Shown in pieces: positions 9,613 to 56,739 of a stretch of 64,000 nt of DNA. Each line of letters begins with the position of its first letter. Within the stretch, counting starts at the first letter, position 1. The translations under genes and the position numbers were made by a program. Source of the stretch: Octopus sinensis (Eukaryota). The notes under the pieces are model-generated. The model was not told the DNA's origin. It made no database searches and worked only from the letters and a program-made list of their open reading frames with translations. The DNA is taken from positions 146,940,001-147,004,000 of the forward strand of contig NC_042999.1 of assembly GCF_006345805.1 (NCBI RefSeq), read 5' to 3'.

Positions 9613-10125
9613 CCGCAGAAGCAGCAGCATCAATGATGTCTTTATCGCCTTCACGATCGCCATCTGATTGTAGTACGACAGCCATTACCCACTTCCCCCG
9701 TCTCCACCAATGATGCTGCAGTCGACGTTGTCGTCGTGCTCGTGGTGCTTCCGATGACCTACTTTTTTTTTCTTTTGCCTCATTGACATTGTAAACATTT
9801 TAAGACTTCTAAAATAGATTTTCGAAGATTAAGATAATCTGGAACAGTTCCTCCAACCCTCCCCTATGAAGTATTCGAATTATTTCTGTTATTTAAATTT
9901 TTTTTATTCCCCATACAGAAAACATGAATGTATATTTTGTTTAGGGACAAACTTTACCAGTTTTCTAAATTCCTATACGCACAGACACGTGCTCGCCACA
10001 TATACATACACGTTCAGAAAAACTTAAATGCATTAAGAAAACACTTGGACATTCATTCATACTCACATATATTCAGGCACACATCTTGATATATGAACAC
10101 AATTGTACTAATGAAAGTACATGTA

Positions 10126-10203
<78 letters not shown>

Positions 10204-10211
10204 AATAAATA

Positions 10212-10338
10212 AATATTCTGTTGAAGAGTGTAGGCTCGAAGCGTAAAAGACTTTTTTCATTTTTCCCGAGCGTCAAAGTAATATACTTGCTTGTTGTGCA
10301 TACACGTGTCTTCGTGCTTTGTTTTCTATGAATTTCAG

Positions 10339-10340
<2 letters not shown>
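10212..10340 (+). mobile_element. PLE-type terminal repeat fragment with a decayed hammerhead
   Basis: CTGTTGA-A-GAGT-GTAG-GCTC-GAAG-CGTA, with two core substitutions relative to CTGATGA/GAAA. It lies between (ATCT)n and (TA)n. Confidence 0.45.
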
Positions 10341-10372
<32 letters not shown>

Positions 10373-10423
10373 GTGATTGTGTGTGTGGTTGTATGTCTGT
10401 ATATGTATATATATATATATGTA

Positions 10424-10727
10424 AAATAATATGTGACAATTATTCAATAGCCAGGATAACACTCTGAGTTTCGGATGCTGAGGTGAAAATCCACAATACC
10501 ATCTCTTCGGTTATCTGGCCATCTGAAAAATTCCTATACGCACAGACACGTGCTCGCACACATATACGTAAACGTTCAGAAAAACTTAAATGCATTAAGA
10601 AAATACTTGGACATTCATTCATACTCATGTGGCCAGATAACCGAAGAGATGGTGTTGTGTATTTCCACCTCGGCACCCGGAACTCAGAGTCTTATTCTGG
10701 CTATTGAATAATTGTCACATATTATTT
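10424..10727. mobile_element. Divergent inverted pair of hammerhead-like repeats enclosing a copy of local DNA
   Basis: Arms 10424-10521 and 10630-10727 (~98 bp, ~8 mismatches). Each reads GATAA-CCGAAGA-...-G(A/G)AA-CTCAGAG-T(C/G)-TTAT. Spacer 10528-10627 is a direct copy of 9967-10065. Confidence 0.8.
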
Positions 10728-10806
10728 GACAGATAAATTTCCTCCATTTACATAATATTGAGGTTTCTTTCTTTCTTTTGTTATCTTAGCGTTTTTACCA
10801 ATATAA

Positions 10807-10872
<66 letters not shown>

Positions 10873-11693
10873 TACAGACATACAACCACACACACTCATA
10901 TATATATATATGCATATACCTGTGTATGTACGTGTGTGTGTGCATGTCTGTCTGTAAGTATATAGTGAGAGAGAGAGAGAGAGTGTTAGAGAGTGAAAGA
11001 CACGCAGATACATCCATATACATATACTACTGTAAATGCACGCACTGACATGAACACACGCGCATGGATTCACATTGTATAGCACTTAACATTGCACACG
11101 CTCAATCTCCTAAATTTTACACACAGACAAACACACATGTGCATATGTGTGTGTGCGCGCGTGCGTATGTGTATATAGATTTCTGTATACACATACGTAC
11201 AGAAACTGTAGCGAGCCCTCAAAGGAACAATACACGATATTATACAAAGCATTATGATCGACCGTTTATTAGGTAGCTTATGAACGATCCTTGGAGTGCT
11301 GGCTGTCAGTTTACCAAAATTAATGGTATTCGGAGTTGAAATAATGAATTCTACTACAGGTAATGCTATTGCTGCTGCAGCTACTGCCACTGCTGTTGCT
11401 TTTACTGAGGATGATAATGATGATGAGTAGAAGGAGGAGGAGAAAGTGGAAGAGAAACTTGAACAGGAGGCGAAGTTAAAAAGCAGAGATGGAGGACGAG
11501 AAGGACATCGTGACGATAATAATAATAATGCTTTCTTTCAAAGATACAAAGTCTTAAATACGAGAGGGGAGAATAATCTTAAATTGAAAAGAACCAGCAC
11601 TTCACTGCTATTTATTTTCTTGACACCGGAAGAAGTAAAGCAATTTAGACACCATTGACTTTAGAAAAGTGTCACAGAAACCATGTACTCTCC

Positions 11694-11830: not shown

Positions 11831-12894
11831 GCATATATATATGGGTGTGTGTGATGTATATATGTGTATATATATATGTCTATATATATATATGTGTGTG
11901 GTGTATATATATATATATACATACATTCACAAATATATATATATATATTATGTATACGCACATTAATATATACATACATTTACATGTATATATATATATA
12001 TAATATATATATATATATATAGACACACAAATAAATTATCCAGGTAAGTGGTCGTGACCTGTGTTGCCAAAAGTTGTAATTATCTTTATATTTAAATGCA
12101 AATTTACCTGTCGTCGTTGAGAGATGACCCTAAATCCATTCTAATCTAGAAAATCTACAATCAATGACACTTCAACTATAACCATAATTCCGTTCCTTAT
12201 AGCAGTATTTACATTATTCGCCTACCAAGAATTTCATGATTAACCATGTTTTTCTTTCTATTCAATTCGTTACCTAACTCCCTTAAAACATTTAAGGATT
12301 TCACATTTTGAAAAATACTACAACTTAGAACCGTTTTAAGATTTTACTGTTGCGATGGCATCACAAATGTGTTGGTCATACGTAACCTACTGTATAGAAG
12401 GCCGTGTATGCTACAGAGGATGCTCAGCCTTGTTTGTGCATGCTCAGGAAGTGACCAAAGAAAATTAACTTTGAATAGAAACCAAATATGAAGCATAGGT
12501 GTACGAGAGAGAGACCACTCAAAAGCTGCATGAGGGCAATGAAGTAGGATCACAGGGATATCCTTTGCGGAGTAGACTCATGATAAGGCATGCAAATATA
12601 TTCATGGAATTCTCTTGTCACCCAGTTCTCTGATCGGGTGTGGGGAAGAAGGCCTAAGACTAAGAATAATGTAGGAACTTTGAGCGCTAAGAACGCATGA
12701 CTTTCATAGTAAAGACGAGAGAAGCTGATTTCAAGTGAGCAGCGTTTAAGATATAGACCTGTATTTCAAATAGATTGTACGAATTGCTCTAAATTGCTTA
12801 TCCGAGTCATAAACGTCATAACCAGGTTATCTGAAATTTCAATTCTCGAGTCAATTCAAATTGATACTATTCTGGAACCTCATCTGGAGTTGAG

Positions 12895-13040
12895 CTTCTA
12901 TTGGAACATTGAACTTCTATTGGGGCAACATTGAAATTCTATTGAGACAACATTGAACTTCTATAGGGATAACATTGGACTTCTATTGGGACAACATTGA
13001 ACTTCTATTGAGACAATATTGAAGTTTTATTGGGACAAGC
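12895..13040. repeat. 22-bp minisatellite, ~6.5 copies
   Basis: Unit aacattgaacttctattgggac repeated head-to-tail with no spacers. Confidence 0.9.
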
Positions 13041-53194: not shown

Positions 53195-54414
53195 GTATTT
53201 GTGTGTCTCTGTTTATCCCCACCCCACCATCGCTTGACAACCAATGCTGGCGTGTTTACGTCACCGTAACTTAGAGGTTCGGAAAAAGAGAACGATGGAA
53301 TAAGTACTAGGCTTACAAAGAATAATGGGGAACAGCTATCTTGCTCCATGACTCCTTTACAGTTGATGCCAATGACATATTTTCCAACGGCTATTGCGAA
53401 TGTATATCTCTATTCAACAACGCCAATGACATTGTTGGTTTTCACAGGTTTCCCCAACACCTCTAAAGTGTTTTGAAGAATGCCTCAACAACGTCCTTCA
53501 AAAATACAACTTCGGAAACATACTAGTGATGGGTGATTTTAACCTCACTTATATAAACTGACCCACAAATACTCTGAAGTTAGGCAAATGCACTACACCA
53601 CACAAAGCAGCAGCAGAATTACTCCTTAATCTAATGGATGACTTTTTCCTGACTCAGCCAGTGCCCGAACCAACAAGACAATAAACCGATCTTAGATCTA
53701 ATATTAACCGAGTACTCGAGCTCTTTTCACAGTATTTCAGTTGAAAACACTCTCCTCTTGGACCATGACATGATATTTTAAAACTTTAATTTCCGGCCAA
53801 TCCCACTCCACTGCACTTATTTGACAACATTAACTTCCACAAAGCGGACTTGTGAGCAATAAGAAAGGATATGTCCTTTATCGATTGGTCCTTCATTCTC
53901 AGTTCCACTGACATTGAAACCGCATGGCAGTGCTTTGAAGACATTGTCACTTATACATGCTCAAACACGCTCCAACGAAATCCACTACACAAACAGAAAC
54001 AGGGTCCCTAGAGAAAAAGAAATCCTCATCAGGCACATCAAAATACTTAAACAGCCAATTAAAATACTCCCACATACAATCCATATTCAAGAAGAATGAA
54101 AGACCTGAAGTTGGAAAAACTTGCTCTGCAAACCAACATGGAAACCTCCATTGAAAATCAAAGAGCTGCAGAGGAACAGCGGGTAATCAAAAAAATCAAA
54201 CCCAAAAGTGTTCTATTCATATGCAAATAAGCATAAGACTGCTGTCTCACTCATTGGTCCATTGATCTATCATAACGGCATTCTACAACACGATGCTAAA
54301 GAAATGACAGAAGTACTGCAGAAACAATACTGCTCTGTCTTAAGTGATGTGAACGAAGTCGATTCCCAACATAAAATGTCGGACATAACCTTTTCTGATT
54401 CAGACATCATAGCA

Positions 54415-54942
54415 GATGCAACCAATAAACTGTCTACGGTCTGGCTACTCTATGTGAAAAGCTTCTCCGAAAAGATACAAAAGATATGCGGCCCATATGA
54501 CATCAGGACAGTATTCAAGAGTAATACAACACTTCGCAAATATCTCCTTCGAGTAAAACCACGAACAGAAGATAATATGACCAAAAACTGCTTGTACTCC
54601 TTCCAATGCAGCTGTGGAAGGTTATACAAAAGTGAAACATACCGCCCCCTCAAAACAAGGGTAGAGGAACATCGCAAAGCTGTGACACGAAGAGATATTG
54701 ATAAATGGGGTATAGCTGATCATCTATGGAAAAATGGAGACCACCTCCCCCTGTGGGATGAAGTTAAAATAATTGACAGAGAACACCCCTGGAAAATTCG
54801 AAATCTAAAAGAAACAGCACATATGCTAGAACACAACAACCACCTAAGCAGACCGAGTGCAGATATGAATAGCAATTGGGAGCGGATATTAAGGAATGAT
54901 AGGAAAATATTAGATTTAAAAGCCCTAAAATTCACTCCATAA
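54415..54942 (+). pseudogene. Penelope-like element 3' ORF fragment (GIY-YIG endonuclease)
   Basis: LLYVKSFSEKIQKIC...NCLYSFQCSCGRLYKSETYRPLKTRVEEH...IADHLW...IIDREHPWKIRNLKE matches the PLE GIY-YIG layout with CxC, R..EH and E. It interrupts the CR1 sequence SDII|INEIKYYSAVGLD. Confidence 0.85.
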
Positions 54943-55170: not shown

Positions 55171-56739
55171 ACAATAAATGAAATCAAATACTATTCTGCT
55201 GTAGGCCTTGATAGATTTCCTGCTAGTCTCCTGAAGCAATGTAGACACCAACTTTCAGTCCCTCTGCCCAACCTCCGGAGAAATTCTTTAGGCTCAGATT
55301 ATATACCGAAGCAGCTCTTATCCCAAGTCTGTCACTCCGGTTTTAAAAGAAGGAAACAGATCTCTCACAGTCAAATATTGTCAAATCTCACTCACCTCCC
55401 ATATTATTTTGAGAGGGTGATAGCTGGCTTCCTAGAAAGCTACACACTCCTAAATTCAAACCAGCATGACTTTCGCTACGGCAGGGACTTTTTAACACAG
55501 CTTTTACACCACATCGATGATATACTTAAAGCCTTGTGAATAGGTTCGGACTCTGATGTCATATATATATTGACTTCGGTAAAACGTTCGATAGAGTTGA
55601 CCAAAATATCCTACTATCAAAACTGACAAATGTTAGAATCCATGGAAACCTCTACACTGGATTGAGTATTTACTGGTGAACAGAGCACAACATGTGATCA
55701 GTGGAATCCACTCAAGCCCAGCAAAAGTCACCAGTAGTATGCCTCAGGGGATTGTCTTGGGCCCGCTCCTCTTTATAAGCTATATAAACGACCTTTCTAG
55801 CGTCATCAAACACAGAAAAGTGAAAATATTTGCTGATGACTCTAAGCTCCAGAAAATTATCAATGAAGAAGAAGACCGAACGCAACTCCAGTCTGATCTA
55901 TATGCTGTGAGTCAATGGGCAGATAAAAACAAAATGTAACGAAACGGAGGAAAATTTGAGCTGATGCAAACTACACTAAAACAACCATACTCTTTTCCTT
56001 CAGGGAAATCTCTCACAACATCTAATAATATCAGAGACCTGGGAGTATTTGTTGATAACAATCTCAGTTGGGGTCCCCATATCAACAATAAGGTCAATAT
56101 AGCTCGGAGGATGAACTTCTGGATCCTAAAAACCTTCCGGTCCAGAGAAGGTGTCATCATTCCAGCTTTCTCCTCCTTTGTATGGCTACACCTCGAATAC
56201 TGCTGCCCCCTGTGGTCCCTCTACGAAACAAAACATCTCGAAAATTGAATCACCTCAGAGGTCATTCACTAAAAGAATTAAGGGCATGACTAATCTCGAT
56301 TACTGGGACCGCCTTAAAGCATGGAAACTCTATTCTCTCCTCAACATTATCTTCAGAATTCATCCAGGCTAGGACCACGGGCCATACGTCCCCTACCCAA
56401 CTCAGGATCACAACACATCAATACGCTGCTACACAATTTCTTTTCCTCAACAGACTATGCCCTATTTACCATTGTCCCGAAACAGATGAAAGAGGAAAGG
56501 ATTCCATTACCTTTAAACGGAATCTGGACAATTTTCTTCAAGGAATACCAAATAAGTCACCTGTAGTTGAATACAAATCATTTAACAAGAACTCCGTACT
56601 CGAATGGACCCATGATACCGCCAAACGTGACCTAAAAAGGATTTTGATAATCCTATCAGGGTGCAATTAAGTTAGACATGACCTGGACCAATCTTTGGTC
56701 GAAACATATCTAAGCTTTGTCTAAGTTTATATATATATA

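Follow-up and report, generated by a model that had tools for sequence, protein, structure and literature searches.

In the genome of Octopus sinensis, two inverted arms with hammerhead-like motifs face each other across about 100 bp of DNA that also occurs a few hundred base pairs upstream. From where, at what stage and by which enzyme was this spacer copied? We addressed the question in a window of 64,000 nucleotides (contig NC_042999.1, positions 146,940,001 to 147,004,000, forward strand), the whole stretch analysed, whose own numbering is used below, and in other facing pairs of the same arm throughout the genome. The features of the locus are as follows, with (TA)n counts taken from the genome-wide pairs.

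9967..10065, plus strand: donor, single-copy host DNA, 350-449 bp to the left of the insertion boundary (alignment and genome search)
10340..10419, no strand: left (TA)n-rich target flank (sequence; (TA)n at 114/125 left ends)
10379..10402, plus strand: 24-nt flank motif, left copy, repeated inverted beyond the insertion
10420..10530, minus strand: left arm, antisense 3' end of a Penelope-like element (PLE) assigned to the Hydra clade, older subfamily; short 3' end without tail, adjoining (TA)n
10450..10520, minus strand: hammerhead-like motif of the left arm, CCGAAGA...CGAAAC; position 4 is C, helix III and the cleavage triplet are decayed
10528..10627, plus strand: junction insert, direct copy of the donor (alignment)
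10630..10802, plus strand: right arm, sense 3' end of the same PLE; long 3' end, adjoining (TA)n
10632..10701, plus strand: hammerhead-like motif of the right arm, CCGAAGA...GGAAC (sequence and fold)
10803..10870, no strand: right (TA)n target flank ((TA)n at 115/125 right ends)
10872..10895, minus strand: 24-nt flank motif, inverted copy (sequence comparison)

Donor, spacer and element

The spacer agrees with the donor in 96 of 100 alignment columns, in direct orientation and with an E value of 5e-41 within the window; the differences are three substitutions and one inserted base. A genome-wide search (E<=10, very common words skipped) found only two matching places in 2.72 Gb, the donor and the spacer itself. 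The donor is therefore not a repeat, and it shows single-copy depth in the contigs of all four public runs. Since the spacer occurs at no third place, it is a local duplication and not mobilised cargo. The open-reading-frame listing gives no evident host exon near the donor. A sequence-only reading of the window had already described the spacer as a direct copy of this upstream segment, belonging neither to an ordinary target-site duplication nor, apparently, to the element. Both statements hold, as the copy has no match in the genome besides its donor, lies inside the pair and has a donor that stands apart from the insertion; a high-copy repeat, which would have undone that reading, is likewise excluded by the two matches.

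The inverted arms (10420-10530 and 10630-10734) are about 92% alike, with 89/97 identical core positions. The right arm continues into a tail of about 68 nt (10735-10802), element sequence that is missing from the left arm. At the left junction, AAA is common to arm and donor, so that the inner end of the left arm overlaps the spacer at 10528-10530. At the right junction, TCA fits donor and element alike and is followed by two bases matching neither.

It is highly improbable that this arrangement is a long target-site duplication, a pair of unrelated insertions or an assembly artefact. The copy lies within the element pair and not outside it, and a stretch of other sequence separates the donor from the insertion. 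Four sites distinguish the copy from the donor, and the arms differ by about 8%. An artefact would be consistent with the lack of an independent contig spanning the joints: among the contigs of the four public runs, none covers 10572-10613 or spans the insertion, which proves nothing either way, and no empty allele was read. The donor in run X16, however, has the same extra A as the spacer copy. This extra A is thus a real allele and not an assembly error, and probably it is the allele that was copied. The donor contigs of runs X1 and X14 are identical to the window. A contig of run X3 tracks the donor to exactly 10065 and then continues with 31 unlike letters, possibly a spacer-arm junction, a deletion allele or a chimera. 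Two pairs elsewhere could also speak for artefacts: the flanks of the pair duplicate each other in inverted orientation for ~350 bp in L088 (centre ~1540) and for ~455 bp in L118 (centre ~2045), and these are either fold-back insertions or long-read chimeras.

Several further features lie close to the insertion. The inverted 24-nt flank motif could be another small fold-back patch, or else the target was an older hairpin centred on (TA)n; an inverted flank match of this kind occurs at 3/125 loci, compared with 2/1250 cross-locus controls. Positions 10205-10340 (plus strand) hold the truncated end of a second, far more abundant hammerhead-bearing PLE-like family, bordered by a (TCTA)n and a (TA)n tract; its core, CTGAAGAG...CTCGAAAC, is decayed. 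Because this fragment lies between donor and insertion, the original donor distance may have been shorter. Further to the right, 12890-12993 contains five copies of a 19-22-bp tandem repeat.

A first look at the genome gave 1842 candidates for the arm. Complete element copies were reached by tracing element sequence found in other joints. They consist of a pseudo-LTR, an open reading frame (ORF) of 708 aa and a second pseudo-LTR, with a unit of 2578 bp. In two of them, arm sequence stands both before and after the ORF, forming pseudo-LTRs from partial tandems:

L201, 1961-4087, minus strand: uninterrupted 708-aa ORF of the putative Hydra-clade PLE (translation)
L202, 2285-4411, minus strand: uninterrupted 708-aa ORF of the putative Hydra-clade PLE (translation)

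The translation contains RWK, DKT at 114, YKDD, a CxCX5C linker (CSCRNKELC at 557), CxxC (CGLC at 660), CxH (CPH at 691) and a C-terminal IIY...YVG without any Cys in between, hence no CCHH in the GIY-YIG domain. Atlas neighbours of the protein at 0.96-0.99 carry GIY-YIG and RVT_1, and sequence searches of Pfam, NCBIfam and PDB with the ORF gave no significant match. The arms thus belong to a PLE, as had been read from the window, since ORF-bearing copies carry both reverse transcriptase (RT) and GIY-YIG marks. Judged by motifs, by a unit below 3 kb and by (TA)n at 229/250 ends, the element is an endonuclease-bearing (EN+) PLE that we assign to the Hydra clade. The Neptune clade was rejected, as the protein has neither the CX2-5CxxC linker nor CCHH.

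Identity of the window arms reaches 92-95% in comparison with an older subfamily and 84-86% with the younger, ORF-bearing one; for the left arm, the values are 94-95% to older-subfamily copies and 84-85% to L201. Copies of the younger subfamily are about 99% alike, which indicates recent activity. An inverted copy that is truncated on its 5' side and tailed at just one of its ends is a described PLE layout (PMC8557442). The Hydra clade described by Craig et al. (2021, PMC8557442) shares with the present element the short unit, the RWK, DKT, CxCX5C, CxxC and CxH motifs, the absence of CCHH, the (TA)n targets and the one-ended tail. Its tail measures 30-40 nt, compared with ~68 nt here, and the hammerhead core here is non-canonical. 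The consulted portion of that study makes no mention of flank-templated joints, symmetric arm ends or an extra G.

Head-to-head pairs across the genome

Pattern searches for facing arms yielded at least 143 distinct pairs, with segmental duplicates merged; one search contributed the first 50 of its 96 matches, the remainder being partly reached by another. The flanks of 143 pairs were examined. Element copies have two alternative termini, which lie about 68 nt from each other, and one long and one short end are combined in 113/125 pairs of the first set and in 18/18 further pairs (131/143). This combination marks single events, which argues against two unrelated insertions. Of the first 125 pairs, 45 have a blunt or overlapping joint, while it measures 1-9 nt in 29, 10-19 nt in 12 and at least 20 nt in 39. 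The 18 further pairs add five large joints, and the resulting 44 comprise 24 of element sequence, one mixed and 19 of non-element sequence.

A local donor was found in the own flank for 12 of the 19 non-element joints (143 pairs examined). These 12 joints measure 29-166 nt and have donors 32-3765 bp away (median 348 bp), seven direct and five inverted. In the first 125 pairs, nine donors lie within 1.3 kb, and those of L150 and L064 lie at 1.5 and 3.8 kb; among the further pairs, that of L210 lies at 0.58 kb. For all nine joints of the first set with a donor closer than 1.3 kb (9/9), the own flank gave the best match of 125 loci, repeat donors included. The donor search passed for 9/17 own flanks versus 54/2108 other loci (p 2e-10), and at L150 and L210 the own-locus match stood above every other locus. 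The pair searches demanded a gap and missed another 124 pairs with very short gaps, so the true rate of capture is nearer 1 in 20 than 12/143.

The claim that spacers of local origin are general thus stands for this one family, where own flanks far exceed the cross-locus control in 12/143 pairs, and no such spacer was seen in a second one. The second hammerhead-bearing family, related to the 10205-10340 fragment, was searched with the anchor AGAGCGTAGGCTCGAA. None of the 32 pairs examined (of 33) has a local donor, compared with 11/125 in the first set (p 0.12). It has six private segments of at least 20 nt, without a donor in flanks of 1.3-2.3 kb and, for three of the six, none to ~10 kb either; several of its pairs look like unrelated neighbouring insertions.

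The remaining seven of the 19 non-element joints (L041, L120, L080, L128, L131, L216 and L077) gave no local donor. L041 is a microsatellite, L120 poly-A/T and L080 a set of rearranged element pieces. No donor was found within 8-10 kb for L128, L131 and L216, and the L077 joint matches one single-copy site on another contig at 90%. The mixed joint, at L254, has a weak local match of 20 nt only and was counted in neither class. A 131-nt joint (L094, 2580-2710, and L281, 1501-1622) has its sole other copy (90%) on contig C24; the pair is situated on an unplaced contig, whose start is 2.4 kb away, so that distant capture and a misplaced neighbour both fit.

Several of the 24 large joints of element sequence derive from downstream of the long end and hence from outside the insertion. 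As this sequence is absent from the insertion, the cDNA ends of these pairs jump templates. In nine pairs (L115, L116, L148, L149, L152, L154, L155, L036 and L075), joints of 60-220 nt derive from the element 5' UTR and first codons, in either orientation and mostly with both arms ending at the hotspot described below. Tandem arrays of 40-60-nt arm pieces, together with tandem duplication of the whole inverted pair, occur at L178 (~2050-2600), L157 (~2000-2250) and L027/L028. Target-site duplications were also sought: 0/125 pairs have a direct non-microsatellite flank match of at least 16 nt, a criterion under which a duplication inside (TA)n would be invisible.

Timing and template of the joint

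The structure is genuine and recurs within one PLE family, as a junction scar that records the joining step of PLE integration. We consider it probable that the window locus is one head-to-head insertion of the Hydra-clade PLE, whose joint was copied from unique neighbouring DNA in the course of integration, a free cDNA end having primed on the exposed flank before the two cDNAs joined. Capture at integration between two oppositely primed cDNAs, as the sequence-only reading had it, is the best interpretation, and its timing is drawn from divergence and end structure because no empty allele was seen and no contig covers the joints.

Regarding divergence, copies differ from their donors at 54/1038 positions and arms from each other at 48/1112 (p 0.36). 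The joints therefore look as old as the arms and not younger. Across loci, joint age and arm age show no correlation (rho -0.16, n 10).

Regarding end structure, the stops of the two arms coincide on the element to within 3 nt in 21 of the 39 large-joint pairs, while permutation gave a mean of 11 and 0/20000 permutations reached 21. Among the local captures, 6/11 are symmetric in this way (p 0.04). The symmetry pattern was found post hoc, and the search anchors favour stops near the hotspot. This hotspot, the commonest stop, is the A of TTCA, 5 nt before GCCAGATAA and the ribozyme-like helix, and in the older subfamily a TATAA lies about 29 nt upstream of it. The base before the arm is G at 16/27 hotspot ends versus 14/71 other ends (p 4e-4, one tandem-array locus left out), and the element itself has C there. 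At 15 short-gap loci, the excess of G at the hotspot was not seen (one G and one T at the site). The window locus is neither symmetric nor marked by the extra G; its arms end at 12 and 2, that is, 7 nt beyond and 3 nt short of the hotspot. An extra G is a known trace of cap copying, noted with an L1-made insertion. Because of this G, the hotspot is likely to be the 5' end of a capped RNA, at which many cDNAs would run off and then jump. PLE promoters have been located in the pseudo-LTR (PMC3846280). A 3' splice site, suggested by TTTTTCAG at this position in the older subfamily, was rejected as the cause of the hotspot: AG is missing there from the younger subfamily, and the upstream sequences vary by locus.

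It is possible that the joint formed after integration. A near-perfect palindrome would have been inserted first, and its centre would later have broken as a hairpin or cruciform and been patched from nearby DNA by an MMBIR- or polymerase-theta-like process, spaced palindromes surviving better. Perfect palindromes are fragile, trimming of a hairpin loop also predicts symmetric inner ends, and local joints occur in 10/79 older but 1/46 younger pairs (p 0.054, first 125 pairs). Nevertheless, we regard later repair as unlikely. Divergence between copy and donor (5.2%) is not lower than that between the arms (4.3%); without two repeat-rich cases, the values are 3.9% and 4.3%. Joints from element sequence outside the insertion are equally common in younger (7/46) and older (15/79) pairs. 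In addition, arms beside joints often keep the exact hotspot end with the extra G, and such intact ends at L161 and L150 argue against later trimming.

For copying during integration, we propose the following course. The element protein would cut both strands in (TA)n, and both 3' ends would be extended on element RNA from a long and a short start site. That both starts are used in one event is suggested by the 131 pairs with one long and one short end. The Poseidon PLE of Anolis behaves similarly in vitro: purified protein cuts and extends both strands in AT-rich targets, with two internal RT starts bounding the tail (Frangieh et al. 2024, PMC11167929). Both cDNAs would halt after ~110-170 nt, in many pairs at the likely capped RNA 5' end. 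One cDNA end would then anneal through 2-4 nt to flanking DNA and be extended by ~100 nt. At the window locus, the simplest route would have the right-hand cDNA pair via TCA/TGA with the exposed top strand of the left flank and copy leftwards; inverted copies at other loci would arise by fold-back on the same strand. The extended end would finally be released and would join the other cDNA through the AAA microhomology, which is itself observed.

The geometry of the joints is consistent with this course. Arm and joint overlap by 1-5 nt at 16/22 junctions, and inverted donors lie 32-346 bp away compared with 131-3765 bp for direct ones (p 0.018, a pattern found post hoc). At resected ends, priming on the partner tail yields direct copies (intermolecular) and fold-back yields inverted ones (hairpin) (10.1101/2019.12.20.882852). 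Templated insertions made by polymerase theta also combine direct and inverted flank copies with short microhomology, as here, but the tracts are rarely longer than 10 bp and come from ~30 bp away (10.1101/2019.12.20.882852); the present tracts are 3-15 times longer and their donors 10-100 times farther. Because the tracts exceed polymerase-theta lengths and distances, and because the same ends jump onto element sequence, we lean slightly towards the element RT over a host repair polymerase as the copying enzyme.

A more specific version, which we hold only tentatively, would make the PLE RT its own end-joining polymerase. After the cDNAs had run off a short, capped, pseudo-LTR-initiated RNA, the RT would use a cap-templated C and pairing of 1-5 nt to jump to other RNA positions or to chromosomal DNA within 4 kb. 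If this is true, PLE insertion routinely makes small local duplications, and the joints preserve in the genome, in readable form, how PLE integration is completed, a step so far unexplained.

The template may also have been RNA, if the PLE RT jumped at integration onto nascent or read-through RNA of the locus and copied this instead of DNA. The same cDNA ends reach element sequence that necessarily comes from RNA or from another copy, some donors, at distances of up to 3.8 kb, lie farther off than a resected tail would readily reach, and the R2 protein jumps between RNA templates (PMC11371274). Still, an RNA template appears quite unlikely. The greater proximity of inverted donors is expected of fold-back on single-stranded DNA and not obviously of RNA, the open-reading-frame listing gives no sign of a host exon beside the window donor, and on informal inspection no spliced joint was noticed.

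Copying of DNA from the exposed flank, the preferred reading, has parallels in several systems, which are compared here from parts of the cited texts. At L1 and R2 5' junctions, genomic templates of less than 250 bp are copied in during integration, and the ends of R2 cDNA snap back, onto either cDNA or target DNA close by (10.1101/2024.08.27.596794; PMC11702581; PMC11371274). For L1, this concerns 22 of ~3600 insertions with templates typically <=15 bp away (10.1101/2024.08.27.596794), whereas here it concerns 12/143 spaced pairs (~1 in 20 with the short-gap pairs), at a median of 348 bp and at a cDNA-cDNA joint. In Adineta vaga PLEs, non-element DNA likewise stands between terminal repeats, and template jumps have been proposed (Arkhipova et al. 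2013, PMC3846280). Those spacers, however, comprise 0.9-1.5 kb or whole genes, lie mostly between direct repeats and were moved to new sites, and inverted junctions were explained by self-priming on antisense RNA (PMC3846280). Here, 29-166 nt at a head-to-head joint were copied from the own flank. The Poseidon study leaves cDNA-cDNA joining aside in its consulted portion (PMC11167929), and it is this step that the present joints record. The origin of tandem and inverted PLE structures is named as an open question (PMC8557442; PMC11167929).

The head-to-head layout is already known. Flank-copied joints, symmetric ends or an extra G were not found for PLEs in the literature searched, mostly open-access main text. 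The joints lead to countable predictions, namely that both strands are primed, long and short starts are paired, ends are symmetric with an extra G, and joints derive from element RNA or the flank; these fit testing in the existing in vitro PLE system. They are also a source of local duplications of 30-170 bp and of hairpin-forming inserts in a repeat-rich genome. Their importance is bounded, as L1, R2 and break repair are also known to give rise to flank-templated insertions, and the rate is ~5-8% in one family.

Hammerhead-like motifs and captured DNA

The motif in both arms resembles a hammerhead by eye, and folding of either window arm gives helix I, with fold z-scores of only -1.2 and -2.0. 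Rfam gave no hammerhead match for the window at gathering score or E<=10, and at a relaxed threshold only low-scoring sub-gathering matches, mostly to microsatellites. The core departs from the canonical CUGANGA...GAAA: it reads CCGAAGA in 271 arms and CTGAAGA in 8, and it has an extra pyrimidine ahead of GAAA. The right arm is predicted to be inactive because its GAAA has changed to GGAA. Thus, the description of the arms as hammerhead-bearing holds only loosely. Both arms continue ~60 nt past the would-be cleavage site; the template was therefore uncut RNA, as in vitro (PMC11167929), and hammerhead cleavage is not needed by the Poseidon PLE (PMC11167929). The hammerhead-like motif has no visible part in joint formation.

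The sequence-only reading had also seen a ribozyme-flanked cassette in the arms and spacer. Such a cassette, retrozyme- or Pack-element-like, would be a working unit that mobilises host DNA. The hammerhead-like motifs in both arms would suit it, PLE terminal repeats moved host genes in trans in Adineta vaga (PMC3846280), and the L077 joint has its only match at the single-copy site on another contig. We nevertheless consider a cassette extremely doubtful, and this part of the earlier reading is not upheld. The motifs lie on opposite strands, so cleavage of one transcript to the left as well as to the right of the spacer is impossible. Nearly all arms have C in place of the canonical T at position 4, GAAA is missing from the right arm, both arms extend through the cleavage site, and the spacer has no third genomic copy. 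Retrozyme-type cassettes have same-strand tandem ribozymes and copies at new sites, neither of which was encountered here. Nothing shows travel or function of the captured DNA.

Remains of another PLE are present farther along the window: at 54187-54942 and 55171-56670 (both plus strand), read by eye, there is what we take to be a decayed GIY-YIG-bearing PLE end among presumably CR1-like LINE ORF pieces.
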